Positions 7,961-28,987 of a DNA stretch of 43,663 bases are shown piece after piece. This stretch comes from an uncultured Nitrospiraceae bacterium (GTDB lineage: Bacteria > Pseudomonadota > Gammaproteobacteria > Acidiferrobacterales > SPGG2), in assembly GCA_964347935.1 (NCBI GenBank), contig CAYGAS010000066.1, positions 1-43,663 of the forward strand. Direction: 5' to 3'. The position numbers were made by a program, and so were the translations under genes. Within the stretch, counting starts at the first letter, position 1, and every line of letters starts with the position of its first letter. The notes under the pieces were generated by a model. That model did no database searches. It had not been told where the DNA came from and was given only the letters and a program-made list of their open reading frames with translations.

Positions 7961-9460
7961 ATGCATGCCCAAACGCAACCCCTCGAGAAGTACAAGACTC
8001 ATATCAATGGCGAGTGGGTGGAGTCCGCTTCAGGCGAACACTTCGAAAGTGATAATCCCTACACCGGCCGTCCGTGGGCGTTGATTCCGAAATGCAATGC
8101 CCAGGATGTCGACCGTGCCGTGCAGGCCGCCCACCGTGCCTTTACGACAGGGGCTTGGCCGAAGCTCAGCGCCTCGCAGCGTGGTGCGTTGCTGCGCAAG
8201 CTGGGCGACGCCATCGCCGAGAACGCCGAGCATCTTGCTAGCATCGAGGTTCGCGATAACGGCAAGCTCATAGCGGAGATGGGCGCGCAGCTAAAGTACG
8301 TGCCGCAGTGGTACTACTACTACGGCGGACTGGCCGACAAGATCGAGGGATCGGTGATACCGATCGACAAGCCCGGAAATTTCAATTACACGCGCTACGA
8401 GCCGCTCGGCGTAGTGGGCGCGATCGTGCCCTGGAATTCGCCCTTGCTTCTGACCGCCTGGAAGTTGGCGCCGGCACTGGCCGCCGGCAACACCGTCGTC
8501 ATTAAACCGTCCGAATTCACGTCGGCCTCCACCCTCGAGTTCATGAAGGTGGTCGAGAAAGTCGGTTTCCCGCCCGGCGTCGTCAATGTGGTCACCGGCT
8601 TTGGGCCCGAGGCGGGCATGCCGCTGGTCGAGCACCCCCTGGTGCGCAAGATCGCTTTCACCGGCTCCGACAAGACCGGCCAGTTGATCTACGAGACCGC
8701 CGCACGCGGCTTGAAGCGCGTGAGCCTCGAGCTTGGCGGCAAATCGCCGAACATCGTGTTCGACGACGCGCACATGGACAACGCCGTCAAGGGCGTGATC
8801 TCCGGCATCTTCGCTGCCACCGGTCAGACCTGCATTGCCGGCTCGCGCTTGCTGGTGCAGCAGAGCATCCATGACCAGTTCGTCGACAAGCTCGTGGCCT
8901 TTGCCAAGACCGCGAAGATGGGCGACCCGATGAGCCTCGACACCCAGGTCGGACCGGTCACCAACAAGCCGCAATACCAGAAAGTGCTAGATTACATGGC
9001 CATCGCCAAGAGCGAAGGCGCACAGACCCTGCTCGGCGGCGAGAAGGCGACGCGGCCCGAATGCGGCGACGGTTGGTTCGTCGAGCCGACGATATTTGGC
9101 GGCGTCAAGAATTCCATGCGCATCGCCCAAGAAGAGGTCTTCGGCCCAGTACTGTCGGTGATCCCTTTCAAAGATGAAGACGATGCCGTCGCCATCGGCA
9201 ACGACATCGCCTTCGGCCTTGCCGCCGGCGTGTGGACGGAGAATATACGCCGCGCCATCACGATGGCGGATCGTATGCAGGCCGGCACCATCTGGGTGAA
9301 CACCTATCGCGCCGTGAGCTACATGTCGCCCTTCGGCGGCTACAAGCGCAGCGGTCTCGGGCGCGAAAATGGCCAGGACGCGATGAGGGAATACTTGCAG
9401 ACCAAGAGCGTGTGGATCTCCACCTCGACAGAAGTACCGAACCCGTTTGTGATCCGGTAG
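7961..9460 (+). CDS. NAD-dependent aldehyde dehydrogenase (499 aa; betaine/aminobutyraldehyde-type architecture)
   Basis: An AGGAGA Shine-Dalgarno (SD) sequence lies 6 nt upstream of the start. ALDH motifs are present: VPWNSPLLL, FTGSDKTG, SLELGGKSPNIVF and ATGQTCIAGSRLLV (catalytic Cys). Confidence 0.9.
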   Translation: MHAQTQPLEKYKTHINGEWVESASGEHFESDNPYTGRPWALIPKCNAQDVDRAVQAAHRAFTTGAWPKLSASQRGALLRKLGDAIAENAEHLASIEVRDNGKLIAEMGAQLKYVPQWYYYYGGLADKIEGSVIPIDKPGNFNYTRYEPLGVVGAIVPWNSPLLLTAWKLAPALAAGNTVVIKPSEFTSASTLEFMKVVEKVGFPPGVVNVVTGFGPEAGMPLVEHPLVRKIAFTGSDKTGQLIYETAARGLKRVSLELGGKSPNIVFDDAHMDNAVKGVISGIFAATGQTCIAGSRLLVQQSIHDQFVDKLVAFAKTAKMGDPMSLDTQVGPVTNKPQYQKVLDYMAIAKSEGAQTLLGGEKATRPECGDGWFVEPTIFGGVKNSMRIAQEEVFGPVLSVIPFKDEDDAVAIGNDIAFGLAAGVWTENIRRAITMADRMQAGTIWVNTYRAVSYMSPFGGYKRSGLGRENGQDAMREYLQTKSVWISTSTEVPNPFVIR

Positions 9461-9747
9461 CAATCGGCAGCACTCACGCCCACCGCACGTAGGCCCCAGC
9501 GCCGGACGTACACCCTTTCGCCCGCGCTTGCGGATCGGCTAAGCTCCGCATGTGTCGGTGTGAGGTGACTTGCCGAGCGCTGCCACTCGGCATCATCAGT
9601 CTGTCAGCCTGAATGCCGCATTCAGCGGCGACGCGGATCACACGCTTATCGCGTGTTCGCCCTTGCCAACCGACGACGGTTTATGACAGGATACGCCGCT
9701 TTTCTTCGCCGCTTCCTACGGCGGAGGCAAGAAGTGGAGAACTCTAA

Positions 9748-10788
9748 ATGCAGAAATGGCGGCGGGCTGTTTTCAATATTTTCGCAGCAAGCATCGTATC
9801 TCTCACAGTAAGCGGCGTAATAGGTCAGGCAAGCGCGAGTGCGCTCGGCCGCTATCCCGAGCGAGTATACGTGCCCACCACGATCGGCAACACGGTGCAT
9901 GTGATCGACCCGAAGACCTTCAAGATCATCAATACCTACCGGGTCGGCAAGGAACCGCACCACGTCACCCCCTCTTGGGATCTGACGAAGCTCTACGTGA
10001 ACAACACCATGGGCGACTCGCTAACCGTCATCGACCCGGCAACCAGCAAGATCGTCGATGAGATCCCGGTAATCGATCCCTATAACCTCTATTTCACACC
10101 CGACGGTAGCAAGGCCATCGTCGTGGCGGAACGCTTCAAGCGTCTGGACTTCGTTGATGCGAAGACCTGGAAGCTCATCAAAAGCGTGAGCGTGCCATGG
10201 GCCGGCGTGGACCATATGGCCTTCAGCCGCGACCGCAACTATCTAGTGGCGAGCTGCGAGTGGTCTGGTCGTATCGTCAAGGTGGACATCAACAAGATGG
10301 AGCTGGTTGCGAACATGAAGCTCGGCGAGAAGCCGATCGACGTGCTACGCCCGCCAGGACAAAACCTGATGTACGTGGCTGACCAGGGCGTGCACGGCGT
10401 ATTCGTGATCGACCCCGACGCGTGGAAGCAGCTCGAGTTCATCCCGACCGGGCGCGGCGCCCATGGCATCATGCTGAGCCACGAAAAGAAACGCCTATAC
10501 GTGAGCAATCGCCTGGAGGGGACGATTTCGGTGCTCGACATCGCGACGCGCAAGATCGTCGACACGTGGAAAACCGGCGCAAGTCCGGACATGGGTCAAC
10601 TCTCCCCGGACGGCAAGCAATTCTGGATCTCGAGCCGCTATCACTCCGACATCCGCGTGATCGACACCGCCAGCGGCAAGGTGATCGCCCGCATCCCGAC
10701 TGACCCGGGCCCGCACGGGCTCACCTACTTTCCGGCCTCGGCCGCTGCGCACTCACTCGGTCATAACGGGGTGTATCTGGAAGATTGA
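9748..10788 (+). CDS. Periplasmic YVTN/YncE-family beta-propeller protein
   Basis: It has a signal peptide and repeated (V/I)xVIDxxTxK(I/V) blades: VHVIDPKTFKII, LTVIDPATSKIV, ISVLDIATRKIV and IRVIDTASGKVI. Confidence 0.8.
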   Translation: MQKWRRAVFNIFAASIVSLTVSGVIGQASASALGRYPERVYVPTTIGNTVHVIDPKTFKIINTYRVGKEPHHVTPSWDLTKLYVNNTMGDSLTVIDPATSKIVDEIPVIDPYNLYFTPDGSKAIVVAERFKRLDFVDAKTWKLIKSVSVPWAGVDHMAFSRDRNYLVASCEWSGRIVKVDINKMELVANMKLGEKPIDVLRPPGQNLMYVADQGVHGVFVIDPDAWKQLEFIPTGRGAHGIMLSHEKKRLYVSNRLEGTISVLDIATRKIVDTWKTGASPDMGQLSPDGKQFWISSRYHSDIRVIDTASGKVIARIPTDPGPHGLTYFPASAAAHSLGHNGVYLED

Positions 10789-10843: not shown

Positions 10844-12484
10844 TCATTCCGGCTCGGCGGGGACTGGTCGCGCCGGCGTGGAGTACCACTGTTCCTTGGG
10901 CACGATCTTTGGTTGCTGCGGATCGGTTTCGTAGGCCGGTGTCATGATTTGCACGCCATATTCGTTGAAGAGATCAAGAATGTTTTGATGCAGTCGGGTA
11001 TAGAGTCTTTCCGTATCGTGGGCATCGCCGCAATAGACGTTAATCTCGTAGGTCACGCAGAAATCCCCGAGCGTCTTCTGCAGCACGAAGGGCTTAGGCT
11101 CCTTTGCCACGCCTTCGGTCCTCTCTGCCGCCTGCAAGAGCATTGCCTCTACCTGGCGCCAGGACGTTTCGTATCCGATGCCGACCGTTGTATGCAGGAT
11201 CAACCTGCCTTCGCGTGCCAGTGAACTGTAGTTCACGATACTGCTGTTCAAAACAAGCGAATTGGGAATGACAACTTGTTCATTCTTAGGGGTACGCAGA
11301 TGGGTCACCAACAATCGAGACTCCGTCACGTTACCGACATACTCATCAATTCGAACACGATCGCCTGTTCTGAACGCCCGCCGGTAGATCATCGAGTAAC
11401 CGGCGATCACGTTGCTGATGACCGACTGGGAGCCGAGTGAAAAGAGCACACCGAGGAAGATAGACACACCTTGAAATGCATTTGATCCCGAGCCCGGAAT
11501 GTGCGGATAAGCCACCACTACCGCAAGGGCAATCACTAGCAGGCGCACCATCCGGTAGGTGGGCCAGGCCCATTCGCGATCAAACCCTGCTATGTACATC
11601 GTCCCCCGTGCCAACCCCGTAAAAGGTAAGCGAATCGCCTTCAGCACGTAACGGGTCACGAACACGAGGACCACAAGAAACATTAGATCGGGAATAACGG
11701 CGAGGAGGTTTTGGCCCATGATAATCAGTGGATCCACCGCCAGGTTCAACAGATGCGCGGATCGCGTCCATGGAAACAGTTGCAACAGGAACTCCAGGTA
11801 GAGGACTATCACAATCAGCACAGCTAAGGTCCAAACGAATTTACGCAGCCCGCGCAGGGCGCTCCACAGATGCGCGGCGCTCAGAAGCCGCAAGGACTGG
11901 GCCTCCAGCCCCTCTAATTTCGCCTTCACCCGCCTATCAAGTACGACATCAAGCCGGCGTAAGGCCCGTCCGCCTAGCCAAAGGAACAGGCCTAGTCCGA
12001 GAGTTGCGGCAAACGCGTATAGCGTGCTGCGTAGCTGATACTCCGGTGTCCGATCGCGCCGATAAGCTTTGATCGCTTCGGCAATACGCTTGACATAGAC
12101 GTCGGCCAGAATCTTGCGGTCCGCTTGTTCCAGTTGCGCGTCCTCATCCAACACGAATAAGACGAGTTGATCGCCTGCTGCGATTCGTGAGCCTTCTTTC
12201 ACCTCGGTCACCCCAAGCGCGTTCGGCGAGAAGGCAGGGTCGGCTGCCAGCGCCTTGATTCGCGCCGCGATTACCTGGGCGCGCTTTTTGGCCGGATACG
12301 CCGATACGCCGCGCACACGAAACAGCTCCACCCCATCGATCACCACTGGTGCTGCGGCGATCTTTTCTGTTGCTGGGGGAGCGGCATTGACTACGCTAGC
12401 CAATAACAACACTGAAATCAGCAACCCTGCTACGGCACAGATAGGCGCGCCCCGACGAGGTGGCGTGGTGGCATTACGGCTCAT
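10844..12484 (-). CDS. MscS-family mechanosensitive channel with signal peptide and periplasmic N-domain
   Basis: The MscS core is GDRVRIDEYVGNVTESRLLVTHLRTPKNEQVVIPNSLVLNSSIVNYS. I chose the start at ATG 12484 (MSRNATT..., GGAGAA SD 8 nt upstream). The ORF is open up to 12544. Confidence 0.85.
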   Translation of the reverse strand: MSRNATTPPRRGAPICAVAGLLISVLLLASVVNAAPPATEKIAAAPVVIDGVELFRVRGVSAYPAKKRAQVIAARIKALAADPAFSPNALGVTEVKEGSRIAAGDQLVLFVLDEDAQLEQADRKILADVYVKRIAEAIKAYRRDRTPEYQLRSTLYAFAATLGLGLFLWLGGRALRRLDVVLDRRVKAKLEGLEAQSLRLLSAAHLWSALRGLRKFVWTLAVLIVIVLYLEFLLQLFPWTRSAHLLNLAVDPLIIMGQNLLAVIPDLMFLVVLVFVTRYVLKAIRLPFTGLARGTMYIAGFDREWAWPTYRMVRLLVIALAVVVAYPHIPGSGSNAFQGVSIFLGVLFSLGSQSVISNVIAGYSMIYRRAFRTGDRVRIDEYVGNVTESRLLVTHLRTPKNEQVVIPNSLVLNSSIVNYSSLAREGRLILHTTVGIGYETSWRQVEAMLLQAAERTEGVAKEPKPFVLQKTLGDFCVTYEINVYCGDAHDTERLYTRLHQNILDLFNEYGVQIMTPAYETDPQQPKIVPKEQWYSTPARPVPAEPE

Positions 12485-12675
12485 GGTCTTCTCCATCGCA
12501 TGATCGATTCTTGTTTGGTACAACGACACGAAATTCTCGTGCACGTTGGCCTTCGCCCGCTAGAAGCTGTGCCCGGCGGCGCTAGCAACTCTGGCCCAAG
12601 ACAACCTAATCGCGCACGACATTACTGTGAGGCATCGCTCGGCAACTGGCAATTGCGCGCGAACAAGTGGTCACC

Positions 12676-15003
12676 TCACCGTGTTGTTCCCTCCAACTGC
12701 ATGCGCAGCTCGCTGAGCGCCCGGTTAGCGGGGGCGCGTTGCAGGGCCTTGTCGACCACGGCCAGCGCCTCGCGCGTGCGCCCGGCGCTGTGCAGTGCGA
12801 CGGCGTAGACATAGCTGTAGCGGGTCTCCTCGGGAGCGAGCTCTGCCGCTCGCTGTAGCGAAGCGAGCGCCGCCGAAAGATTCTTCTGCCGGACCTGCAG
12901 CAATCCCAGGCTGTGGTATAGAGCGGCTGCTTGTGGTAAGCGGGCGATCCCGGCGCGCAGGATTTGTTCACCCTCGGGATCGCGGTTTTGTCTGCGCAGC
13001 AGATCGGCAAGATTGACGTAGGCCGGCGCCCAGTTCGGATCGAGTGCAAGCGCCTCACGGTAGGCGTGCCCAGCACTATCCGCCTGGCCCCGTGCCGCGT
13101 AGAAGTTGCCCAGGTTAACGTGGGCGGCCGGATCGTCGGCATTTTGTCGTTGTGCCGCCAAGTATTCATTGCTCGCCCGTTCAAGGTCCGCGCGTGCGCT
13201 TGGCGCAAGAGCTTCGAGCGGAACATCGGCAAGGGCGCTCGCCGCCAGTGCGCGAACAGTGCGCATTGGATCCCGCAGCAGATGCTGGATAAGCTGCCAA
13301 CGTGTCTCGAGCGCTACGCGTTCCAGTGCCTCGAGCGCCGCCATGCGCACCAACGGATTCGTATCGCTAAGCGCATCGTTGAGGGCGTCTAGCGTTTGCG
13401 GGCTCAGCCAATCGCGCAGCGCTACAGCCGCCGTCGCGCGGGCGATCGCCGGCTGATCATGATCGCGTAACAATCCTAACAGGCGGAGCCCGGCATCTTG
13501 GGTTATCGAGCGCGCTTCGTGCAGCGCTTCGGCATAGCGTTGATAGCTTGTCGGCTTACGACCGTACCATTGCCGGACCTTCGCCGCGGCCCATGCCGCC
13601 GGCTTCTCATTGTGACAACGGTTGCAGGCGTTCGGGGTACCGAGCTTGCTGGAGAGGTCGGGCCGCGGAATGCGAAAGCTGTGATCCCGTCGTGGATCGA
13701 CGACCATGTAGGTTTTGGCCGGCATGTGGCAATCAACGCAGTTTGCGCCCGCCGACTCAGAACGATGAAAATGATGTTTAGGCGTCTCGTATTTTCCCGG
13801 CGCATGACATTGAAGGCACACGCCATTGCCCGGTACTTCGAGGGCAAGACTGTGCGGGTCGTGACAGTCACTACAGGTGATCCCGGCCCTATACATCTTG
13901 CTCTGCAGGAACGAACCGTACACGTAGACCTCGCCGTCGATCTGCCCGTCAACATGGTAAAGGCCCTCAACCAAGAGCGACGGCAAGTAACTATCCATGA
14001 GCGGCTGCCCGGGGCGGTCATCATCGAACAACTGAGCGCGCCGTGAGTGGCAGCGGGCGCAAAGCTCAATCTCGATCTCGGTCTGGCGTGGGACACTACG
14101 CCGTGGCGTACCCGACTGCGGATCCAGTATCCATTGCATACCCTTGCGCTCGTCGAGAGAGATGACGAGCCCTTTGCTGCGTGCATCGATCGTCTCCCAG
14201 CCCTCCTTGCGCTTCGCCCAGCTAACGTGATGCGAGCCGGGTCCGTGACAGGCCTCACAAGAGACGTTGATCTCCGACCACGTTGTTTCGTATTGGCGGC
14301 GAGCCGAATCATAGTTTTTCCGCAGGTTCGTCGAATGGCAATCCGCACACATGAAGTTCCAGTTCTGCCGCAGTCCCGTCCAATGCAGCTCATCGCGATG
14401 CGTGACGGCTTCATTCGGATAAAGATGGAACCAGCGCTGCCCGCCCTGCTCCTTCGGTCGAGTGTCCCAGGCAATGTTGAGGGCCTGAAGGCGGCCGCCG
14501 GGTAACTCAACGAGATATTGCTGGAGCGGTGTCGCCCCGAAGGTGTACTTGATCCCGTAATCGGCAAGCTTGCCGTCCGGACCGTCCGTACGGACAAAGA
14601 CCTTGTCCTCACGCTTGAAAAAGGTCGAGGTGATGTCGGCATAACGAAAGGTTGTGTTGTCGAAGTTGCCGAGTACGGACGTCTCGGTCGCTTCCTGCAT
14701 GGCGAGGTCGTGATGCGAGCCTCGCCACAAGCGCCCCTGCTCGGTATGGCATTCGAAACAGGTTGTCCCTCCGACATAGGTGGGCGCAGTAAGAACCGGC
14801 TTAGGGTCGGCGCGCGGCGTGTGCGGTGCTTCTATAGGGCGCAGCACCCACCACACACCGGCACCCGCAAACACGACGAGCAATAGCCCACTGATCAACC
14901 AACGCAAGCCCCGCGTGCGACCCGGCGGTACAGCCTCCCGGGGCGGGGTTGGTGAAGTCTGGCCTTTATTGATGCGATTTCTTGTTCGCCTCTTGCGACT
15001 CAT
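12676..15003 (-). CDS. Membrane-anchored octaheme c-type cytochrome fused to HEAT-like and TPR repeats
   Basis: Eight CXXCH motifs are present: CFECH, CADCH, CEACH, CARCH, CSDCH, CLQCH, CVDCH and CNRCH. There is one N-terminal TM helix (LRWLISGLLLVVFAGAGVWWVL). The C-terminal ~280 aa consists of Ala/Leu-rich HEAT/TPR repeats. I chose the start at ATG 15003 (MSRKRR...) because the longer ORF (15063) abuts the upstream terminator. Confidence 0.8.
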   Translation of the reverse strand: MSRKRRTRNRINKGQTSPTPPREAVPPGRTRGLRWLISGLLLVVFAGAGVWWVLRPIEAPHTPRADPKPVLTAPTYVGGTTCFECHTEQGRLWRGSHHDLAMQEATETSVLGNFDNTTFRYADITSTFFKREDKVFVRTDGPDGKLADYGIKYTFGATPLQQYLVELPGGRLQALNIAWDTRPKEQGGQRWFHLYPNEAVTHRDELHWTGLRQNWNFMCADCHSTNLRKNYDSARRQYETTWSEINVSCEACHGPGSHHVSWAKRKEGWETIDARSKGLVISLDERKGMQWILDPQSGTPRRSVPRQTEIEIELCARCHSRRAQLFDDDRPGQPLMDSYLPSLLVEGLYHVDGQIDGEVYVYGSFLQSKMYRAGITCSDCHDPHSLALEVPGNGVCLQCHAPGKYETPKHHFHRSESAGANCVDCHMPAKTYMVVDPRRDHSFRIPRPDLSSKLGTPNACNRCHNEKPAAWAAAKVRQWYGRKPTSYQRYAEALHEARSITQDAGLRLLGLLRDHDQPAIARATAAVALRDWLSPQTLDALNDALSDTNPLVRMAALEALERVALETRWQLIQHLLRDPMRTVRALAASALADVPLEALAPSARADLERASNEYLAAQRQNADDPAAHVNLGNFYAARGQADSAGHAYREALALDPNWAPAYVNLADLLRRQNRDPEGEQILRAGIARLPQAAALYHSLGLLQVRQKNLSAALASLQRAAELAPEETRYSYVYAVALHSAGRTREALAVVDKALQRAPANRALSELRMQLEGTTR

Positions 15004-15071
15004 CTCGAATGCGATTATAAGCTTCCAGGAAGCGAGAATGGAGAGCGGGCCACGCCGGTGCATCGCTAGGC

Positions 15072-15105
15072 AAAAAAAACGGACACCCTGCTGATGGGCG
15101 CCCGT
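15072..15105 (-). terminator. Rho-independent terminator closing the DUF3604 operon
   Basis: The minus-strand RNA reads ACGGGCGCCC-AUCAGCA-GGGUGUCCGU followed by U8. The stem is 10 bp including two G.U pairs. Those two pairs become A.C mismatches on the + strand, so the terminator is strand-specific. Confidence 0.7.
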
Positions 15106-15227
15106 TTGGTTGCCAAATATTCCTGCTTTACTATTGCGGCTGCGGGTTCGACTGCACCTTAGCCATGCCGAATTCTCTCTTACTTCATTTCACGAGCCCG
15201 AACATGCCCGACCGCGACTACGGTACC

Positions 15228-15689
15228 TTATTCAACCAGTGGCACCTCGGCCGCAATCTCGTATTTTACGATCGCCCGGATCTTGTTCTCGATCTGTAGG
15301 TAACGTGCGACCTTCCACTCGGGCAATGCCTTCTCCAGCTTCGGCACGTAGGCACGCTTCAGTTTGAGTTCGGACTCCTCGATCGCAAGCATCTCGCCGA
15401 GCAGCTTCTTTGCGGTGTCGTTGGAAACAGGGCCCTTGTTGTACGCGTCTGCGTACTTCAGGATCAGCTTTCCCAGACGCTCGTTTATTCCTTGCAGGTC
15501 CTTCTGGTAGGCATCGTAGACGGGCCAGAAACCCTTGGCCTCCGACTCCGTGAGGCCCATGTTCACGGCCACGACTAGTTTTTTATCCGCCTTAATCTTG
15601 TCGCGCAGGATCTGCATGTTGTCCTGGGCCACAACAGGCATCATCGCCAACGCCGCAATCATAAGCACAAATATCTTAGCAGTTTTCAT
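15228..15689 (-). CDS. Small secreted all-helical protein of unknown function (possibly Spy/CpxP-like; very tentative)
   Basis: 153 aa starting at ATG 15689, with an AGGAG SD 8 nt upstream. It has a signal peptide (MKTAKIFVLMIAALAMMPVVA/QD) and a Lys/Glu/Leu-rich, helix-prone sequence. It is the last gene before the terminator. Confidence 0.65.
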   Translation of the reverse strand: MKTAKIFVLMIAALAMMPVVAQDNMQILRDKIKADKKLVVAVNMGLTESEAKGFWPVYDAYQKDLQGINERLGKLILKYADAYNKGPVSNDTAKKLLGEMLAIEESELKLKRAYVPKLEKALPEWKVARYLQIENKIRAIVKYEIAAEVPLVE

Positions 15690-15798
15690 AGACATGTCTC
15701 CTGGTTCAGTTTGGTGAATGAAAACCATCGATTCGCTCACCCTCTGCTACGTGACTGGTAGACGAAATCGCACAGTTCTCTTGCCGACCTTGCTCACT

Positions 15799-17730
15799 CT
15801 ATGGTGTGTACCAAATAGGCGACGTGTAGGCGCGCTCGGTTGTGGTCATCGGCACCGTCTTGTCCACCTTGACCTTGAACCGTGCGGCATCGTACGCGGT
15901 CCAACGCGGCGTCGGGATCTCGATCACGCGCACGTAGTAGAACGCGCGCAGTTTCGGATCGAAGTCCGGATCTTTCCACACTGTAATCAGTTCCGGCGCA
16001 CCGATGGTGTTGGTCCAGGTCGCGTTGGCGACGTCGACCGTGCTGCCCACCGGGGGCAGCTTGCCGTCGGCGCCCGGCTTGCGATCGCCCGCCCAGACGA
16101 CGTCGTAGACCTTCTCCTGCCGCTTACCCTTCGCGTCGATCCAGCCCTTGACGATCTGGATGCGGTCGAGGTTGCCGCCGAGCGGGTCCTTCAGCGCCGC
16201 AACCAGGAACGTGGGCGCCTTGCCCGCGGGCGCCTTGAGCAGGTCGCCGCCCATTGTCACGCCGAGCTGATAGCCGATCGTCGCCGGCGTGCGCGATCTG
16301 GCGTGCTCGGGCCTGAAGCCGTAGCCACCGAAGAAGCGCACGATCATGCGCGAGCCGGTGGTCGCGTAGGTCTCCTTGCGCTTCATCGCATCCCAAATCG
16401 CTTCGCGCGTGTTCTCCGTCGCCCACACAGCGGCATAGCCGCTCGACGCCTGTTCCCATCCTATGATGCAGTTGCTGCCGAAACAGCCCACCGCATGCTC
16501 CCAGCGCTTTGGGCCCGGCTCGGTGCCGGAATGCTTGCCGAAGAAGTTATCCTCCTGCGCAGTAGCGAGCGCGGTGTGGCTGTCCGCCGAGCCCACCATG
16601 CCGAACTTGTACGGGTTGACGCCGGTCTTCTGCTCAAGCGCGAGGCCGATCTTGAGCGCCTCGCGGGCGTACTCGTACTGCAGCATCTCCTTCTTCTTCG
16701 GCACGCTCAGATCGAGATTTCCCTTGTCCCAGGTCTCGTAGTCGGCGAACTCGTCGTTCGGCGACAGGAACGGATGCGTCTCGCCATCGCCCTTGATCTG
16801 CGTGACCTCGTACAACGGCTCCCAGCGCATGCGCGTCTTTGCATAAGCGCGGTCGAGCGGCTTGCCGGTGAAGCTGTCGACCATCGGGAACATGATGCCG
16901 TTCGACAGGTTGCCGTTGTGCGCGAGCGCGAGGATGCGGCCGCCGGTCTTCTGCTCGTAGGCCTCGAGCCACTTCCACAGGTCGCGCGGATCGTCGCTGC
17001 CCAGGGGCTTGAGCGTGGTATACGGCTCGACCATGCTCGCCTTGTTGCCGCCCTCGCGGAAGATGACGACGCGATGCAGATTGTTGCCGTTGGTGTTCGA
17101 GGTCCACTCGTAGCCGATGAAGGCGGTGAACTTGCCGGGGTCGTTGTATTTGTCGGCCGCCTTGACCGCAGTCTCCCAGGCCGAGCGGTAGGCCTGGCTG
17201 CCGGGCAGCGACGCGAGCGCGGGCGGGAATTTGTTCTGGCTGAACGAAGAGATGACCTCCAGCGCGGCCTTCACGCCCTGCTGGCCGCCTTTCTGGACCA
17301 TGTCGTACCAGCGCTTGCCGGTCGCATCGGCGAGCATCGCAGGATCGCCGGCAAACAGGCGCGGGAAGAACCCCATATTGTCCGAGTGGTCCGCGACGAC
17401 GAGAAAATCCAGCGGCCGCGAAAGCCTGACCTTCAAGCCGGTCGACGAGACAAGCTCTTCGCCGCGCGCGAAGCGGTAGGCATCCTCGGGCTGCAGGCGC
17501 GCGCCGAAGGCACCGGCATCCATCGACATGCCTGTGTGCAGGTGGGTGTCTCCGAAGTACACCTGGTCCGGAAAATTACGCCCGGCGTAAGGCGAGAAAT
17601 GCCGCTGCGGCTTGAATGCACCCTCCAGCGTCTCCGCTGGCGGCACTGGGTCATTAGCCATCACCGTGCCAGCAAATACCGTCACAAGCACAACCACTAT
17701 GTGCACGCTCACAAATTTGCAGAACTTCAT
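15799..17730 (-). CDS. DUF3604-family protein, soluble periplasmic paralogue (A)
   Basis: 643 aa with a signal peptide (...AGTVMA/ND). Motifs present: YFGDTHLHT, PLDFLVVADH, GYEWTS, HNGNLSNG, GSADSHT and the C-terminal ERAYTSPIWYTP. Size and motifs fit Pfam DUF3604 as I recall it. Confidence 0.85.
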   Translation of the reverse strand: MKFCKFVSVHIVVVLVTVFAGTVMANDPVPPAETLEGAFKPQRHFSPYAGRNFPDQVYFGDTHLHTGMSMDAGAFGARLQPEDAYRFARGEELVSSTGLKVRLSRPLDFLVVADHSDNMGFFPRLFAGDPAMLADATGKRWYDMVQKGGQQGVKAALEVISSFSQNKFPPALASLPGSQAYRSAWETAVKAADKYNDPGKFTAFIGYEWTSNTNGNNLHRVVIFREGGNKASMVEPYTTLKPLGSDDPRDLWKWLEAYEQKTGGRILALAHNGNLSNGIMFPMVDSFTGKPLDRAYAKTRMRWEPLYEVTQIKGDGETHPFLSPNDEFADYETWDKGNLDLSVPKKKEMLQYEYAREALKIGLALEQKTGVNPYKFGMVGSADSHTALATAQEDNFFGKHSGTEPGPKRWEHAVGCFGSNCIIGWEQASSGYAAVWATENTREAIWDAMKRKETYATTGSRMIVRFFGGYGFRPEHARSRTPATIGYQLGVTMGGDLLKAPAGKAPTFLVAALKDPLGGNLDRIQIVKGWIDAKGKRQEKVYDVVWAGDRKPGADGKLPPVGSTVDVANATWTNTIGAPELITVWKDPDFDPKLRAFYYVRVIEIPTPRWTAYDAARFKVKVDKTVPMTTTERAYTSPIWYTP

Positions 17731-17803
17731 CTTTTACCCCCCTGCTGTCGAAACGGTCTTGTCGCGTCGTCGCTGATTGACTCACATCCAAGATTTTTCA
17801 TCT

Positions 17804-19777
17804 TTAGGGCGTATACCAGATCGGCGAGGTGTAGGCGCGCTCCTGGATGGTTGCCGGGCGTCCGGTCTTGGCCGGATCCATCCCGAGCGCAATGGCGTCA
17901 GCCAGCGTGTGTCGCGGCGTGGGAATCTGGATCACGCGCACATAATAAAAGGCACGCAACGCCGGATCGAACGCGGGATCGGTCCAGACGGTGGCGAGCT
18001 GGGCATCGCCAATGCTGTTGCTGTACTTGCCGGTCTTGATGTCGACGGTACTACCGACCGGCGAAGCCTTGCCGTCAGCGTCGACCGTACGGCCATCGGA
18101 GAGCGCGATGTTGAAAACCTTCTCCTGCGGCTTGCCGTCCTTGTCCACCCAAGCTTTGACGATCTGGATGCGATCCAGATTGGCCTCGACCGGGTCCTTC
18201 ATCGCCGTGGCCATAAAAGTGGGTGCCTTGCCCTTCGGTGCCCTGCTGATCTCGCCGCCCATGGGCACGCCTTTCTTGTAGCCGCGCTCGACCATTTTCT
18301 TGGCCGCGAGGTCCTTGGCGTCAAAATCCCAGCCGCCGAAGAAGCGCACCCGGATCCGTGGCCCGGTGGTGGCATAGACCTCTTTGCGGCGAAACCCGTC
18401 GAACAACGACTCGCGGGTATTCTCTTCGGCATACACGGCCACCAGACCCGCGGCACCCATTTCCCACCCCGGTGTGCCCGGAATGATGTCTTCTGACCTG
18501 GTTTCCGGCGTGGAATCAAGCGCCATCTTGCCGTGGAAATTGTCCTCCTCGGCGGAGGCCAAGCCGGTGTGCGAATCCGTCGAACCGATCATCCCGAACT
18601 TGTAGGGATTCGCACCGATGCGATCCTCAATCACCAAACCACGCATCAGTGCGGTACGAGCATAGTCACCCACCCGCGCCACACGTTGTTCGTGCTGCTT
18701 GATGTATTCGCGGTCCTGCTCAGTCAGCTCGCCGAGAAAGGCGTCACTGAACATGGCTTTTTGCTTGGTGCCCTCGACTTCGATCAAGTGGTCATAGGTT
18801 TCGTAATCGGCAAATTCGTCAGTCGGCGACAGGTTGGGGTGGGTCTCTGAATCACCTTTGATCTGGGTCATCTCCACAACAGGTTCCCACCTCATGCGCG
18901 TAGCCGCATATTCCCGGGTGAGCACCTTGCCGTCGCTGTCCTGCAAGGGAAACATGAGGCCCTTGCTGATGTTGGAGTTGTGCGGAATGGCGATGAAATT
19001 CGTACCCGTCTTCTGCGAGGTCGAATCCAACCACTTCCACAGGTCTTCCGGCCTATCACTGTCGAGCGAAGTATAGGGAATAAACTGTTCGCCCTTTTGT
19101 TTGCCCTCGCGCATGAAAATCACGCGATGCAGGTTCGCGCCTTGGGGTGTCGAAGACCATTCCCAACCCATGAAGGCGGTGAATCTGCCGGGCTCGTTGT
19201 GCCGGTCGGCAGCCGCCATGATCTCGCCCCAAACGGTACGGTTAATCTCGGGATTGTTAAGATCTGGATTGGGCGGCACCACTTTGTTCACCTGGGCGAT
19301 GAGCTCGCCGAACACCTCGATCTGCTTGCCGGCATCTGCCATCTGCTTGTAACGCTTGCCGGTGGGTGTGCCGGTCACCAACGGATCGCCCTGAAAGATC
19401 TTCGGCACCACACCCATGAACTCGCCGTGATCCGAGACCACGAGGAAATCGAGCGGTGTGCCGATCTGCACGCGCGCCCGGTGATAGGGATGCACGACCG
19501 GAAGTCCTTTGGCATAACGGTACGCAGTGTCCGGATCGGCGATGTGATTGCGCATGAGATAGGCGTCCGGCGAATACGAGGTATGCAAATGCGTGTCGCC
19601 CCAATAGACCTCCCGCAACGGCTGCGACTCGGTCATCGCCGGCTTTTCCACGACGCGCGTCGCCTCCTTGGCGACTTCCTTTTCCTGTGCCGGTTCCTGC
19701 GCCTTCTCACAAGCCGCAAGCGCTAAAAAGGACGTAATAGCCAAAAGCAATCCTGCAATCCTGACTTTACTTATCAA
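17804..19777 (-). CDS. DUF3604-family protein, lipoprotein paralogue (B)
   Basis: 657 aa with a TTG start and a GAGGAG SD 7 nt upstream. It has a lipobox (LALAAC). The motif set is the same as in paralogue A: YWGDTHLHT, PLDFLVVSDH, GWEWSS, HNSNISKG, GSTDSHT and ERAYTSPIWYTP. Confidence 0.85.
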   Translation of the reverse strand: MISKVRIAGLLLAITSFLALAACEKAQEPAQEKEVAKEATRVVEKPAMTESQPLREVYWGDTHLHTSYSPDAYLMRNHIADPDTAYRYAKGLPVVHPYHRARVQIGTPLDFLVVSDHGEFMGVVPKIFQGDPLVTGTPTGKRYKQMADAGKQIEVFGELIAQVNKVVPPNPDLNNPEINRTVWGEIMAAADRHNEPGRFTAFMGWEWSSTPQGANLHRVIFMREGKQKGEQFIPYTSLDSDRPEDLWKWLDSTSQKTGTNFIAIPHNSNISKGLMFPLQDSDGKVLTREYAATRMRWEPVVEMTQIKGDSETHPNLSPTDEFADYETYDHLIEVEGTKQKAMFSDAFLGELTEQDREYIKQHEQRVARVGDYARTALMRGLVIEDRIGANPYKFGMIGSTDSHTGLASAEEDNFHGKMALDSTPETRSEDIIPGTPGWEMGAAGLVAVYAEENTRESLFDGFRRKEVYATTGPRIRVRFFGGWDFDAKDLAAKKMVERGYKKGVPMGGEISRAPKGKAPTFMATAMKDPVEANLDRIQIVKAWVDKDGKPQEKVFNIALSDGRTVDADGKASPVGSTVDIKTGKYSNSIGDAQLATVWTDPAFDPALRAFYYVRVIQIPTPRHTLADAIALGMDPAKTGRPATIQERAYTSPIWYTP

Positions 19778-19802
19778 ATCCCTACTCCTCGTCGTTAGCT
19801 GA

Positions 19803-20819
19803 TTAAAAGAACCCGCTGACGCGTTGAATTACCCAAAACGCAGCAAGACCGCCGATGCCGTAGGCCGCTGCACGTGGGGCCCAGGTGATTGGCCGCTCAA
19901 GAGTACGCTTTCCAAGTTGCAAGATGATTAACACGAGGCCGATGAACAGCAGCTGCCCGGCTTCGACACCGACGTTAAACATGAGCAGAGCCAGCGGGAT
20001 ATCCGTTTGGGGCAGCCCGACCTCCGACAATGCACCGGCAAAGCCGAAACCGTGCAGCAAGCCGAAGCTAAAGGCGACGATCCAGGGGTAGCGTTCGGTG
20101 AGTCCCTGTCGTGCGTCGCGTTTCTTCGCAAGCTCGGTCGCCAGAAAGAGAATGCTCAGCGCAATCACGGCCTCGACCGGCGCTTGCGGGACATGGACCA
20201 ATCCGAGCGTCGCCGCAGCCAGCGTAATGCTGTGGGCCACCGTAAAGGCCGTGACGGTTTTTATCAGCAGCCAGCGCCCTTGCACGATCAGCAGCAGGCC
20301 CAACACGAACAGCAGATGATCGATACCGCCCAGAATGTGCTCGACACCCAGTACAAAGTAATCGCCGCTCACCCGCCATCTCGAAGGTGCGCCCCTTAAA
20401 ATAAAACCAGGTGCGTTGGGCCGGAGAATATGCGAATAACTCGCGCCGTTAGCCAACTGCACCCGGGCCAAGACATCCGTCAAGGTTCCCTCTAGACCTT
20501 CTATATATAAGGAATGCCCCGCCAGCCCGGTGTTGCCGCAGTCCGCCGTCCAGCGCTCGAGCGTCGATCCGGGGAAGACGTAGGTCCCCTTGAGCCCGAC
20601 CTCTACGCAGTGACGCGGCAATTTCGGATAAAGCGCCAGCACTTGGTCGCCGCGCGCCGGACGGCGCCACATGATTTCGAAGACCCCAGCCTCTCGCTCG
20701 CGCAGCTCGAGATAGGCCGGCCGCGATTCGTGCGCGACACTCGCGAGCGGAAACCACGCGCTGATCGCCAGCATGCCGGCAAGAAACCACGATACTCCGG
20801 GCAACTCCTTATTTTTCAT
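19803..20819 (-). CDS. HupE/UreJ-family (type 2) membrane protein, putative Ni/Co/other metal permease, with N-terminal periplasmic domain
   Basis: It has a signal peptide, a ~130-aa soluble domain, then HILGGIDHLLFVLGLLLIV and five further TM helices. Its ATG overlaps the upstream gene's last codons by 11 nt. Confidence 0.85.
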   Translation of the reverse strand: MKNKELPGVSWFLAGMLAISAWFPLASVAHESRPAYLELREREAGVFEIMWRRPARGDQVLALYPKLPRHCVEVGLKGTYVFPGSTLERWTADCGNTGLAGHSLYIEGLEGTLTDVLARVQLANGASYSHILRPNAPGFILRGAPSRWRVSGDYFVLGVEHILGGIDHLLFVLGLLLIVQGRWLLIKTVTAFTVAHSITLAAATLGLVHVPQAPVEAVIALSILFLATELAKKRDARQGLTERYPWIVAFSFGLLHGFGFAGALSEVGLPQTDIPLALLMFNVGVEAGQLLFIGLVLIILQLGKRTLERPITWAPRAAAYGIGGLAAFWVIQRVSGFF

Positions 20820-21681
20820 TCTTCAATGCCATCCACTTTTTGCCCTCTAGCGGCGCGACGACGATCTCGTAGCGCTCCCGCAGCCGTTGGTACGCGAGCT
20901 CATTCACTTCCCGCCGTCTATCGATTAGAAAATCGTTCTCGACCTTTTCGCGCACGGCCGCGAATTCCGGCAGGCGTGATTCAGTACGATCACTGATATA
21001 GACGAGGTGCAAACCGTATCCGGATGCAACGGGCCCTTGCCATGTCTCCGGCTCGAGCTCCACAAGGCGTCTTACAAACGCCTGACCGAAATCCCGCGCG
21101 ATCTCAGGCGCGCTTTTTTCTACGTACTCGTGCGCCAGCATGAAGCGATCACCCCGCTCTCGCGCGCGCTCAGGTGATTCCTTGACTGCTTGCAAGCGGT
21201 CAAGTTCAGCTTGGGCATCCCTTTGAATGCTCGAGCCGCGCCGATCGGGATTGAAATAGATGTGCGCGAAGCTTAGTGAAACGGGCTGACGGTAGCGTTC
21301 CTGGTTCTCTTGGAAATAGGCGCGAAGCTCGGCCTCATCAGGTTCCGTCGGCACCGCAAGGTCAGCCACGAGGAACTCCACCTTTTGCGCCATACGGCGA
21401 CGCACGATCGTGTCATCTTTGTCCAGGCCTAATGCCAACGCCTCTCGATAGAGCACTTCCTCGCGGATGTGGGCTTCGATCAGGCTTTCGAGCTCCGGCT
21501 GCGTCGGCGGACGTTGCCACTGTTTCATCCAGCGCGTGCGCAGGAGGTCGATGTCGTTCGCCGACACCTCGATTCGCGTGCTGGTCGAAGTCGCATACGG
21601 ATCGTTGAGCCAGAGATAGGCAGCGAAAAGGAACGCGCCGATGGCAAGAAAATGCACCAGCGGCTCGCGGTACCACGTCAC
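20809..21681 (-). CDS. Membrane-anchored PpiC/parvulin-type peptidyl-prolyl isomerase-like chaperone (Rotamase_2-like)
   Basis: It has an N-terminal TM helix (LVHFLAIGAFLFAAYLW), a SurA-N-like helical region and a GPVASGYGLHLVYI parvulin-like block. I chose the GTG at 21681 as the start because a GGAGGAG SD lies 4 nt upstream. The ORF is open to ATG 21774. Confidence 0.75.
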   Translation of the reverse strand: MTWYREPLVHFLAIGAFLFAAYLWLNDPYATSTSTRIEVSANDIDLLRTRWMKQWQRPPTQPELESLIEAHIREEVLYREALALGLDKDDTIVRRRMAQKVEFLVADLAVPTEPDEAELRAYFQENQERYRQPVSLSFAHIYFNPDRRGSSIQRDAQAELDRLQAVKESPERARERGDRFMLAHEYVEKSAPEIARDFGQAFVRRLVELEPETWQGPVASGYGLHLVYISDRTESRLPEFAAVREKVENDFLIDRRREVNELAYQRLRERYEIVVAPLEGKKWMALKNEK

Positions 21682-21745
21682 GTCTCCTCCACTTGGGTGG
21701 TCGGTTCTGAGGCAGGTAGGTTTTGCTACCGATTTGAAGCGTTGC

Positions 21746-21774
21746 ACCTTAACGTCAGTGGTCTGCGAATGCAA
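21746..21774 (-). promoter_or_regulatory. Candidate sigma70 promoter for the PPIase-HupE-DUF3604 operon
   Basis: On the minus strand: TTGCAT (21774-21769), a 17-nt spacer, then TAAGGT (21751-21746), about 65 nt upstream of the GTG start. This is a pattern match only. Confidence 0.3.
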
Positions 21775-21841: not shown

Positions 21842-21867
21842 TCGACAAGGCCGGTCGGCCTTGTCGA
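21842..21867. terminator. GC-rich perfect hairpin between the DMT gene and the PPIase-like gene (possible terminator or insulator)
   Basis: TCGACAAGGCC-GGTC-GGCCTTGTCGA forms an 11-bp perfect stem. It starts 10 nt after the DMT stop. There is no U-tract on either strand. Confidence 0.4.
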
Positions 21868-26916: not shown

Positions 26917-28620
26917 TTACATCTCAGGCGACTTAATCATGAATAGAAACTCCCGCACAGCCGCCTTCGACTCGGGCCGCAGGTTCTCAATACCTTCGTA
27001 GGGGATCCCGATCGCCGGCCCCTCGTCCGGATACTTCGCCTTGCGTTTCAGGTGGCGTTGGACCATGCGGACGAACTTGGCCCCACCCCAGGCGCCGATT
27101 TCCGTGGACACCGGGTATCTTTCCTGGGGGTCGCGGAACAAATCGTAGAATTTGGCCAGGATGGCATTCTCTATGTTGCCCCCGGGAATAGCTAATTTGT
27201 ACTGCTCCTTCACGACCGCTTCCAGCTTGTTGATGTTGTAGAGGAACACGTAGTCACGTCGCCCATGCGTGTCCCCGTTCAACATCAGGGTCGTCTGGTC
27301 GATCCCGTCGATGATCCGGTCGGTGGGAACCTTGCTCGTGGCCCCGGCCAGGCGGGCGATGGTTGTAAACAGGTCCGATACGTGAATGATGTCCCCGGCG
27401 ACGGAATCGGCCTTGATCATGCCTGGCCAGCGCACGAAAGCGTCCACCCGCACCCCGCCCTCCGTGGTGTCGCCCTTGCCGCCGCGGAAGATCATCGGGG
27501 TGTAACCGGATTGCGGCGAGTACTTGGTGAAGTGACCGTTGTCACCCATGACGATGACCAGGGTGTTATCGGCGATACCCAACTTGTCCATCTCGGCCAT
27601 CAGCTCGCCGATCCACTGATCCACCAGCTTCATCTTCTCCACGTAGATTCCGCCATTCGGCGTGGTGTATTTGTCGGTGGTCGTGCGGGGACCGGTCAGG
27701 GGGTACAGCGGCCAGTAATTCAGGAAGAAGGGTTTATCGGCCTTGGCCAGCTTGCGTAGCTGCTCCATGGTTTGCTTCTGGTAACGCACGTTCATCTCGT
27801 GGTACTTCTTCTCGTTCCAGCGCTCGCCGGTCTGCATGTGCACTTCTCGGACGGGCTTGTTGCGTTGGCCCTCGACGCCTGTGACCATCGCCGACGCATC
27901 GGTGCGCAGCCAGCGATCCATGGTGTAACGACCATCGTAGTTGTTGTCGCCGATGCCGATAGAGACTTCCTCGTTTGCCGAGTCATCGTTAAAGATGGAC
28001 AGCTGACCCTGCTGGTGAATCGGGAAGGCGGCGTAGTCAAAGCCTTGGTAATTCGGCCAGGCTTCCCGGATGTCACCCATGTGCCACTTGCCGATATGGG
28101 CCGTGTTGTAGCCGACTTCAGACAGGATCTCCGCCAGGGTCACTTCCTTGCCGGCCAGTCCAAAGCCGGAAATATCGACGGAGGTATTCCCCATGCCGTT
28201 GCGAAACGGCTGGCGGCCTGTCATGAAGGCTACTCGGGTCGGCGTACAAGAGGGTTCCGTGTACATGCGTGACAGGCGCATCCCCTCGCGGGCGATCTTG
28301 TTGATCGCGGGTGTGCGGTATCCCCGGATGGCGTTGAGTGTCTCGCTGCCGAGATCGCCGAAGCCGATGTCGTCGATCAGGATGTAAAGAATGTTCGGCG
28401 GCTTGCCTCCGTTATTCTTGCGGAACTCCGTCAGCTTGACGTCGAGCGTTTTATCCTCGACGGCCCACTTCTTACCGTTCTGCGCTTCTAGGATGTAGTA
28501 CTCTGCGTCGTGGACCAGCTTGACGCTTTTGCCCTCCTTGGCCGATGCAGCGGTGGCCAACGGCGCAGCCCCCGCGAACATTATCGTCAGACCGGAGATC
28601 GCTAAGGTTCGAAGGTTCAT
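26917..28620 (-). CDS. Secreted formylglycine-dependent sulfatase (arylsulfatase family)
   Basis: It has a signal peptide (MNLRTLAISGLTIMFAGAAPLATAASA), the metal-binding LYILIDDIGFGD and the SCTPTRVAFMTGR C-x-P-x-R motif. The start is at ATG 28620, with a GAGGA SD about 9 nt upstream. No FGE or anSME maturase gene is present in the window. Confidence 0.9.
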   Translation of the reverse strand: MNLRTLAISGLTIMFAGAAPLATAASAKEGKSVKLVHDAEYYILEAQNGKKWAVEDKTLDVKLTEFRKNNGGKPPNILYILIDDIGFGDLGSETLNAIRGYRTPAINKIAREGMRLSRMYTEPSCTPTRVAFMTGRQPFRNGMGNTSVDISGFGLAGKEVTLAEILSEVGYNTAHIGKWHMGDIREAWPNYQGFDYAAFPIHQQGQLSIFNDDSANEEVSIGIGDNNYDGRYTMDRWLRTDASAMVTGVEGQRNKPVREVHMQTGERWNEKKYHEMNVRYQKQTMEQLRKLAKADKPFFLNYWPLYPLTGPRTTTDKYTTPNGGIYVEKMKLVDQWIGELMAEMDKLGIADNTLVIVMGDNGHFTKYSPQSGYTPMIFRGGKGDTTEGGVRVDAFVRWPGMIKADSVAGDIIHVSDLFTTIARLAGATSKVPTDRIIDGIDQTTLMLNGDTHGRRDYVFLYNINKLEAVVKEQYKLAIPGGNIENAILAKFYDLFRDPQERYPVSTEIGAWGGAKFVRMVQRHLKRKAKYPDEGPAIGIPYEGIENLRPESKAAVREFLFMIKSPEM

Positions 28621-28987
28621 AGTGGAGTCCTCATATTCCTTCAAAGGCACTATAGGTTGATCGTAATCGTTTCAGCGAGATAGGCGAATTTGGGCGGTAG
28701 ATGATAAGGGCCTCACACAGAGCGCGCGTTAAGCAAGCACTTGTTGGATTGACGTTGGTGGAAGCCGTGGACGCCTCGCGTAAATCACTCGGCTTGTTAA
28801 TTCGGATTCGTCTGCAGATGACGAGTGCTCCTCCCGTCGGGGTCTGATCAACCTCTTAGAGGGGCCATAGTCTGCCAATTGCTCCGAAATTTGTCGATCT
28901 TTGTATACCTTTAGAGCAGCATGGGATTACCACGAATATCGAACGCCGTGCCTGATCGAACCAGTTACTGTGAACGTTGGCTACGTA

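Follow-up and report, generated by a model that had tools for sequence, protein, structure and literature searches.

A conserved triad of genes for an exported DUF3604 protein, a PpiD-like membrane protein, and a HupE/UreJ-2 permease, with a proposed role in the metal loading of putative periplasmic hydrolases

The window analyzed here, the whole 43,663-nt stretch of contig CAYGAS010000066.1, contains five consecutive minus-strand genes (21681-15228) that encode two tandem paralogues of the DUF3604 family, a PpiD-like membrane protein, a HupE/UreJ-type permease, and a small helical protein. Upon setting the gene starts in this cluster with homologue support, we determined that it opens with the gene for a 290-aa membrane-anchored parvulin/PpiD-like protein (PPI; 20809-21681, GTG start, Pfam Rotamase_2), followed by those for a 338-aa HupE/UreJ-2 permease (HupE2; 19803-20819, Pfam HupE_UreJ_2), a 657-aa lipoprotein with the lipobox LALAAC (DUF3604-B; 17804-19777), a 643-aa soluble protein with a cleavable general secretory (Sec) signal peptide (DUF3604-A; 15799-17730), and a 153-aa exported all-helical protein (15228-15689, start MKTAKIF as in its homologues) that belongs to no Pfam family. 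The PPI and HupE2 genes overlap by 11 nt, and the subsequent gaps measure 25, 73, and 109 nt, exactly as described in an earlier note on this DNA. The sequences also bear out the earlier statement that every product is predicted to leave the cytoplasm, PPI having a transmembrane (TM) anchor, HupE2, DUF3604-A, and the 153-aa protein having signal peptides, and DUF3604-B having its lipobox.

The array is bounded by candidate transcription signals. Downstream lies a strand-specific intrinsic terminator (15072-15107, minus strand; stem 15107-15077), detected by a terminator scan, that consists of a 12-bp G+C-rich stem, a 7-nt loop, and a T8 run; its RNA has a folding energy of -26.6 kcal/mol (z = -3.7), which was matched by none of 200 shuffled sequences. 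Upstream, a candidate sigma-70 promoter (21746-21774, minus strand), with a -35 element TTGCAT (21774-21769), a 17-nt spacer, and a -10 element TAAGGT (21751-21746), is found about 65 nt before the PPI start codon, which is itself preceded by GGAGGAG; the mechanically called open reading frame (ORF) of PPI runs on to 21774. This element scores under the threshold of the promoter scan in the window itself and aligns with TTGAAA-17-TAAAGT in a syntenic metagenome contig (L082), where the scan detected it. Just past the stop codon of the upstream EamA gene, a perfect 11-bp hairpin (21842-21867, minus strand; TCGACAAGGCC-GACC-GGCCTTGTCGA, loop GACC) delimits the cluster on its upstream side. This hairpin lacks a T-run and is kept only in part in L082; it might bind a protein or act as a Rho-independent-like stop that lacks a U-tract. 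Terminator, hairpin, and candidate promoter had all been reported before and were recovered. Lying on one strand, with short or overlapping junctions, a terminator, and a candidate promoter, the five genes look like an operon. A 773-aa ORF that runs antisense across both DUF3604 genes (15718-18039, plus strand) was considered and rejected as a gene, as were other long antisense ORFs; such ORFs also cluster across the 80 genome loci described below, because the sense genes are strongly conserved and high in G+C.

Both DUF3604 paralogues match the Pfam family PF12228 over practically its full length, in agreement with their earlier assignment: DUF3604-A with 828.6 bits (3.6e-249, profile positions 2-591 of 591) and DUF3604-B with 770.5 bits (1.4e-231, positions 3-591 of 591), the cut-off being 20.4 bits. 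They are 46% identical across 667 columns, and the long blocks previously quoted as common to these two ~650-aa proteins are present in both. The family has more than 8,000 database matches, and every member ends at its very C-terminus with the same motif, ...AYTSPIWYTP (...ERAYTSPIWYTP-COOH). Homologues of the B type are 68–92% identical, and 77 of 115 contain a lipobox. Among 360 DUF3604 homologues, Tat-like motifs (of the twin-arginine translocation pathway) are rare, and the B and C subfamilies often contain lipoboxes; these proteins therefore probably cross the membrane unfolded and would acquire their metal in the periplasm. Our literature searches (DUF3604, PF12228, PF13795, and Chlamydia locus tags) found DUF3604 named only in a list of Chlamydia transposon insertions and returned no functional study, and full-text searches returned no paper that mentions PF12228 or PF13795 by accession. 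Consistent with the earlier statement that the family is without an assigned role, no published biochemical role was found.

Having scanned one genome per species, we obtained 80 loci (L001-L080) with an A-type DUF3604, which are distributed among the Acidobacteriota, Planctomycetota, Verrucomicrobiota, Gemmatimonadota, Bacteroidota, Nitrospirales, Desulfobacterota, and the Alpha-, Beta-, and Gammaproteobacteria, and which include Rhizobium, Mesorhizobium, and Bradyrhizobium. Searching these loci by tblastn with the window proteins, we detected a PPI homologue in 54 and a HupE2 homologue in 53; where the locus is fully flanked (at least 3 kb on each side), both partners are present in 35 of 46 cases, from more than ten phyla. 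The two partner genes always share the strand of DUF3604, PPI preceding HupE2, with DUF3604 either before or after the pair and directly adjacent to it in 41 of 53 arrangements. Furthermore, the end of the PPI gene overlaps the start of HupE2 by 1–11 nt in the window and in all eight other annotated or called pairs.

The reverse survey, in which metagenomes were searched with a HupE2 profile, gave a corresponding result: of the 40 loci whose upstream DNA is long enough, 38 have PPI there, and nine of the 11 HupE2 loci with room on both sides contain DUF3604. The association extends to the level of replicons, as 79 of 72,556 plasmids carry DUF3604 and 79 carry this type of HupE2, with the same taxon counts; in 51 records among the matches listed for both, the two genes are spaced 1.2–5.4 kb apart, and the pairing persists where the DUF3604 protein is only 39–45% identical to the query. 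Triads were found for all three sampled DUF3604 subfamilies (A, B, and C), and one is encoded by the cyanobacterium Gloeobacter morelensis.

The co-conservation of DUF3604, Rotamase_2, and HupE_UreJ_2 that the earlier note had asked about is thus very strong, in both search directions and at the replicon level. However, the five-gene system that it described has to be reduced: three of its genes are conserved together, while the 153-aa protein lies near DUF3604 in only one of the 80 genome loci. The conserved unit is the triad of the PPI-HupE2 pair and DUF3604, not the set of five genes. Likewise, the tandem paralogues are present as described but are not special to the window: tandem copies occur in seven of the 80 genome loci and in seven metagenome loci, the B-then-A pair recurs in L082 and in a marine gammaproteobacterial lineage (L170-172), and a B-type protein also occurs in a plain triad (L083). 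Neither the three-gene system nor what DUF3604 does has been described; the proteins involved are members of known superfamilies and receive annotations as a matter of routine. Within the 80 loci, the A-type DUF3604 proteins of different phyla are 62–77% identical (median 67%), compared with median identities of 39% for the adjacent chaperone and 48% for the permease. For a protein that is not a housekeeping protein, this reflects either an unusually strong constraint or recent horizontal spread.

The HupE2 protein of the window matches HupE_UreJ_2 (PF13795) with 161 bits (2e-47; cut-off 24.5). Its signal peptide is predicted to be cleaved between ...ASVA and HESRP, leaving HESRPAYLE at the start of the mature protein, which consists of a ~120-aa periplasmic domain followed by a TM domain. 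In an alignment of 13 diverse sequences, the TM-domain residues H-x5-DH, H, E, H, and E are invariant, as are the motifs GVEHILGGIDHLLF, FTxxHS, PVEA, FGLLHGFGFAG, and GVExGQ. The consensus H-E-x-R-P-x-Y-L-E follows directly after the signal peptide, and residue 1 after the predicted cleavage site is a histidine in 11 of the 13 homologues and an aspartic acid in two. A 2025 study (PMC12537917) described PF13795 permeases with periplasmic "anglerase" domains that carry an N-terminal histidine and bind Cu2+/Ni2+ (crystal structure 9GCE, Ang-1), and proposed that this domain captures metal and feeds it to the permease for uptake. The gene neighbourhoods reported there for Ang-1 comprise DUF4198, indigoidine-A-like proteins, PfkB kinases, and mostly unknown proteins; DUF3604 is not named or given a role, and no isomerase is among the neighbours in the main text (PMC12537917). 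The earlier note had spoken of a metal importer and of folding factors; both roles are inferences, with the "anglerase" study being in keeping with the one for metal.

The PPI protein matches Rotamase_2 (PF13145) with 56.1 bits (8e-15; cut-off 27) at residues 145-276 of the long ORF. An N-terminal TM anchor with a conserved REPLxHF motif (REPLVHF in the window), a helical chaperone-like region, and a PpiC-type domain make it look like a PpiD-type chaperone. Among 13 homologues, the histidine of the C-terminal G-x-H-L-V motif is invariant, and the first parvulin histidine (SFAHIY) is either H or Q.

To obtain a fold for DUF3604-A we used AlphaFold2. A model based on a 30-sequence alignment reached a predicted local distance difference test score (pLDDT) of only 56 and was discarded; the model was redone with a 144-sequence alignment of the three subfamilies, which gave a pLDDT of 89.8 and a predicted template modelling score (pTM) of 0.89. 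The predicted structure is a barrel resembling the distorted (beta/alpha)7 barrel of the polymerase and histidinol-phosphatase (PHP) superfamily, with large insertions and a C-terminal beta-sandwich. When the model was compared with the PDB by Foldseek, the first match was 3e0f (E 6.4e-4, probability 0.98), the second 3o0f, and the fifth 9etk (RNase AM), all PHP phosphoesterases; the remaining matches are Ig-like beta-sandwiches that aligned to the C-terminal domain. The residues H63, H65, D71, H115, E208, H219, D383, and H385 are invariant in the 144 sequences, and H271 is near-invariant (at least 90%). Alignment to E. coli YcdX further revealed that DUF3604 matches its six motifs one by one and in order: DLHMHT..S..H of YcdX corresponds to DTHLHT..S..D of DUF3604-A, FAITDH to LVVADH, GIE to GYE, GFH to NLH, ISHPGN to LAHNGN, and GSDSHTA to GSADSHTA. 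All nine YcdX-type ligand positions, by the YcdX ligand numbering, are kept in both window paralogues. These results agree with the PHP-like fold and metal ligands suggested earlier. Because sequence-profile methods fall short of significance, the assignment rests on the predicted fold and the order of the motifs; DUF3604 is thus supported as a member of the PHP superfamily by its ligand motifs and predicted fold, not by profile similarity.

Additional genes accompany the triad in some lineages. The 153-aa protein has no match in Pfam or NCBIfam and represents a family of 3,799 representatives of ~160 aa with a signal peptide, the motifs FWPxY and RYxQIENK, and a C-terminal IPLV. Weak matches to Metal_resist (PF13801) were obtained for 10 of 43 homologues (best E 1.1e-4) but not for the window protein, and a search of the PDB with a profile of the family returned nothing meaningful; the protein is probably Spy/CpxP/ZraP-like. 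It is found near DUF3604 only in the window, L082, L067, and L143, and is a lineage-specific accessory outside the conserved module. Hypothetical proteins beside the Pseudoalteromonas triad were tested as homologues of the 153-aa protein and are not homologous.

The earlier note left out two neighbours that recur. Just past the terminator, an octahaem c-type cytochrome (eight CXXCH motifs) with HEAT and TPR repeats is encoded at 12676-15063 on the minus strand (Pfam); its conserved part begins at codon 53, a TTG at 14907, and a TATAAT box is found at 15021-15016. As both the TATAAT box and the TTG start lie beyond the terminator, this gene probably forms a separate transcript. The octahaem-TPR protein is 81% identical to the protein at the equivalent position in L082 and 38% identical, over 727 aa, to a neighbour of DUF3604 on a Rhizobium johnstonii plasmid, and it occurs in five of the 80 genome loci (L020, L037, L048, L059, and L065); it is a recurrent accessory of DUF3604 clusters. 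On the Rhizobium plasmid, the gene order is arylsulfatase, HAD hydrolase, octahaem-TPR protein, outer-membrane protein (OMP), DUF3604, PPI, and HupE. The second neighbour is a sulfatase-family gene (26917-28650, minus strand; Pfam Sulfatase, 5e-38) about 5 kb upstream of the cluster. Sulfatases occur within 10 kb of DUF3604 in 10 of the 80 genome loci and on the Rhizobium plasmid, which is only suggestive of a loose accessory.

Other neighbours are intermittent and include extra canonical HupE/UreJ paralogues (9–16 of the 80 loci), small outer-membrane beta-barrels (about 10), MetA-like OMPs (four), a CGYH lipoprotein, and AraC-type regulators beside DUF3604 (four loci). On a Pseudoalteromonas donghaensis plasmid (L174, 1-7588), the triad is adjoined by a heavy-metal P-type ATPase, a cupredoxin-domain protein, DUF6488, and a second, divergent HupE/UreJ, surroundings that amount to a metal-handling neighbourhood. 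TonB-ExbBD genes lie beside the PPI-HupE2 pair in L103 and L169; a general link was rejected, as no further locus among 160 tested has them. Near the pair in L100, a 665-aa protein (11640-13637, plus strand) combines EF-hands, an AhpC/TSA redoxin domain, and Cu2_monoox_C. In a single case, L021, a staphylococcal-nuclease (SNase) homologue (8789-9790, plus strand) is encoded directly upstream of an orphan A-type DUF3604, which fits a role of DUF3604 on nucleic-acid or nucleotide phosphoesters. Three genes for MscS-family mechanosensitive channels are present in the window (10844-12544, 31058-33562, and 33604-36087, all on the minus strand), two of which adjoin each other and encode proteins of more than 820 aa each; in L083 and L170, the triads likewise have MscS genes nearby. 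In the window and nine loci, Rfam scans detected only tRNAs and neither metal nor other riboswitches.

Considering these data together, we propose that DUF3604 proteins are exported unfolded via Sec, DUF3604-B of the window then becoming a lipoprotein and DUF3604-A a soluble protein, and that they would fold in the periplasm into a PHP-type barrel with a trinuclear metal site (H-x-H, D, H, E, H, H, D-x-H), elaborated by ~110-residue insertions and the C-terminal beta-sandwich. Such an enzyme would most likely cleave an ester, a phosphoester being the best guess. The coupled genes would supply a single-pass PpiD/parvulin-like periplasmic chaperone and a HupE/UreJ-2 permease whose His-bearing mature N-terminal periplasmic domain may capture a divalent transition metal. 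Acting as a dedicated station for metal handling and folding, the pair could concentrate the correct metal at the membrane surface, or pass it on there, and could hold the large apo-enzyme while its three-metal site is loaded. One chaperone-permease pair would serve one to three DUF3604 paralogues, and the 153-aa Spy/CpxP-like protein, the octahaem-TPR protein, and the sulfatase would be additions in some lineages. We assign a probability of about 0.5 to this reading, i.e., that DUF3604 proteins are exported trinuclear-metal PHP hydrolases with an ester substrate and that a dedicated, coupled chaperone-permease pair provides for their metal and their folding.

A number of observations weigh against this proposal. 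With respect to gene content, the pair is missing within 10 kb of DUF3604 in 11 of the 46 fully flanked loci, and two HupE2-PPI loci (L100 and L103) lack DUF3604 within 7 kb; we found no consistent replacement enzyme in L100 and L103 and no consistent replacement partner in the orphan DUF3604 loci. With respect to the fold, the Foldseek scores are modest (TM 0.36 on the target), in lenient Pfam scans 73 DUF3604 members matched DUF3604 alone and no PHP family, hhalign comparison of the DUF3604 profile with single YcdX and RNase AM sequences was not significant (E 0.1), and sequence and profile searches of the PDB with DUF3604 gave no match. The HupE2 protein, including its N-domain, likewise matched no PDB chain in single-sequence and profile searches, in which the presence of 9GCE among the searched entries is unconfirmed. 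Prolyl-isomerase activity of PPI is doubtful, since its first catalytic histidine varies. Finally, characterized HupE/UreJ proteins import metal into the cytoplasm, where it would be of no obvious help to a periplasmic enzyme exported via Sec.

This last point leads to an alternative in which the system serves metal acquisition: DUF3604 would hydrolyze a metal-bearing compound in the periplasm (a metallophore or an organic chelate, for example) or free the ion in some other way, the His domain would capture it, and HupE/UreJ-2 would import it into the cytoplasm, with the chaperone aiding the permease or the hand-over and with outer-membrane barrels and sometimes a multihaem reductase completing the route. 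Not only are the studied HupE/UreJ proteins importers, but the "anglerase" PF13795 permeases have been proposed to act in capture and uptake (PMC12537917); additional HupE/UreJ paralogues, outer-membrane barrels, and MetA-like OMPs are among the neighbours, as is the recurrent octahaem-TPR protein, and the P-type ATPase, cupredoxin, and further HupE/UreJ next to the Pseudoalteromonas triad, as well as the TonB-ExbBD genes beside the pair in L103 and L169, point the same way. However, the TonB link is confined to those two loci, no TonB-dependent receptor family is among the recurrent neighbours, and the riboswitch scan of the window and nine loci found none for metal. Moreover, an enzyme of 640 residues that is 65–77% identical between phyla, often with two or three paralogues, would seem to exceed the needs of a simple chelate esterase, and the sulfatase and HAD neighbours favour the hydrolysis of nutrient esters over the release of metal. 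We regard metal acquisition as unlikely, though as the main rival account. In another reading, DUF3604 proteins would be a new family of periplasmic phospho- or sulfo-esterases that, together with sulfatases and HAD phosphatases, mineralize organic phosphorus or sulfur, with the permease and chaperone as general envelope helpers that only accompany them. The nearest solved PHP-fold relatives are indeed phosphoesterases, sulfatases occur in the window and in the 10 loci noted above, an arylsulfatase and an HAD hydrolase are encoded on the Rhizobium plasmid, and the secreted SNase homologue in L021 and the AraC-type regulators in four loci would also suit such nutrient scavenging. Conversely, a HupE-type channel with invariant His, Asp, and Glu residues is an implausible carrier of phosphate, sulfate, or organic products, and the pairing (38 of 40 loci, nine of 11 loci, and 79 versus 79 plasmids) is too specific for general helpers; nor did we find a phosphate or sulfate transporter among the recurrent neighbours or, in a brief look, an evident Pho-box-like element upstream of the Rhizobium DUF3604 gene. 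This explanation seems quite improbable to us.

The motif at the extreme C-terminus of every DUF3604 protein and the fact that one membrane protein is strictly paired with only a few "clients" bring to mind a sorting system in the style of exosortase or rhombosortase, in which the HupE-like protein and its single-pass partner would recognize the DUF3604 C-terminus and process the protein or route it to the outer membrane or the surface. Yet this motif lacks the hydrophobic helix and the basic tail of known sorting tags and is modelled with high confidence as beta-strands inside a folded domain, while the membrane protein is a clear member of HupE_UreJ_2 with the metal-binding signature of that family, and no protease or transpeptidase motif was seen, which makes a sorting role very improbable. 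Even less credible is the idea that five unrelated neighbours merely resemble an operon. It can draw on the 153-aa protein and the EamA gene, both conserved in close relatives only, but chance adjacency is excluded for the triad, which recurs in more than ten phyla, whether the search starts from DUF3604 or from HupE2, and in which stop and start codons overlap.

Should the proposed maturation station exist, it would be the first system in diderm bacteria to load metal into a Sec-exported hydrolase as its specific client. It is an open question how exported metalloenzymes obtain the correct metal once beyond the cytoplasm, a task for which few dedicated systems have been described. The module links a large and extremely conserved family of probable orphan hydrolases to a putative metal-capturing permease and a membrane chaperone, and resolving it would give DUF3604 a function and the "anglerase" permeases a physiological client or pathway; it might also reveal an abundant new periplasmic esterase relevant to nutrient cycling and, with it, perhaps a new way in which organic phosphorus or sulfur is turned over in soils and oceans. 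More tentatively, DUF3604 might be an undescribed global class of exported trinuclear-metal esterases that depend on a dedicated station of an "anglerase"-type permease and a PpiD-like foldase, a generalization that we consider possible but doubtful. The module is compact and genetically tractable, being available on Rhizobium and Sinorhizobium plasmids and in Pseudoalteromonas, Rhodobacter, and Gloeobacter.

Several known systems share parts of this design. The PHP phosphoesterases that gave the best structural matches to the DUF3604-A model, together with E. coli YcdX (i.e., YcdX, RNase AM or YciV/TrpH, 9etk, and BAD_1165, 3e0f/3o0f), have the same motif order, DxHxHT..S..(H/D), (I/V)xDH, GxE, xxH, xHxGN, and GSxDSHTA, which accounts for the nine ligand positions. 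In contrast to these relatives, which are cytoplasmic and have a histidine as the third ligand, DUF3604 proteins are exported with a Sec signal or a lipobox and have an aspartic acid at that position. They are also 2–2.5 times larger, containing a helical insertion after motif II, a ~110-residue insertion between motifs V and VI with many invariant charged residues, and a C-terminal beta-sandwich of ~180 residues. The CehA/McbA metallohydrolases (NCBIfam NF038032; carbaryl hydrolases) are likewise large PHP-related hydrolases; the N-terminal HxH region of DUF3604-B matches NF038032 weakly over ~60 residues (E 3e-4, 20 bits, cut-off 80), while DUF3604-A does not match it.

Among membrane-anchored parvulin-type periplasmic chaperones (SurA-like N-domain), PpiD and PrsA share with PPI the TM anchor, the helical chaperone-like region, the PpiC/Rotamase_2 domain, and the periplasmic orientation, and presumably a common role in the folding of exported proteins. 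PPI, at 290 aa, is much shorter than PpiD, and unlike PpiD and PrsA, which are general, it would be dedicated to one client family; its gene is obligately and translationally coupled to that of the permease, and, with H or Q as its first catalytic residue, it may be a chaperone only. The HupE/UreJ-2 permeases with "anglerase" domains (PMC12537917) resemble HupE2 of the window in having a signal peptide, a histidine as residue 1, and a periplasmic domain fused to PF13795, although the N-domain of HupE2 is shorter (~120 residues, compared with a linker at residues 176-184 in RbAng-1a). Classical HupE/UreJ proteins, which are nickel/cobalt permeases, serve a cytoplasmic hydrogenase or urease, whereas here the partner enzyme would be periplasmic.

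Two systems serve as precedents for the proposed maturation of DUF3604 by the chaperone-permease pair, namely the YcdX-YcdY-YcdZ operon and metalation by TerC proteins. YcdY is a dedicated chaperone of YcdX, and YcdX is, according to annotation, likewise encoded together with YcdY and with YcdZ, a small membrane protein. Sec-exported enzymes receive metal from TerC proteins (PMC10550928), and in the TerC-family members MeeF/MeeY, as would be the case here by functional analogy, a polytopic membrane protein for metal transport supplies metal to enzymes that cross the membrane unfolded via Sec. The TerC proteins, however, belong to an unrelated family, act generally, and are encoded neither beside a single client gene nor with a coupled foldase, unlike the module described here.

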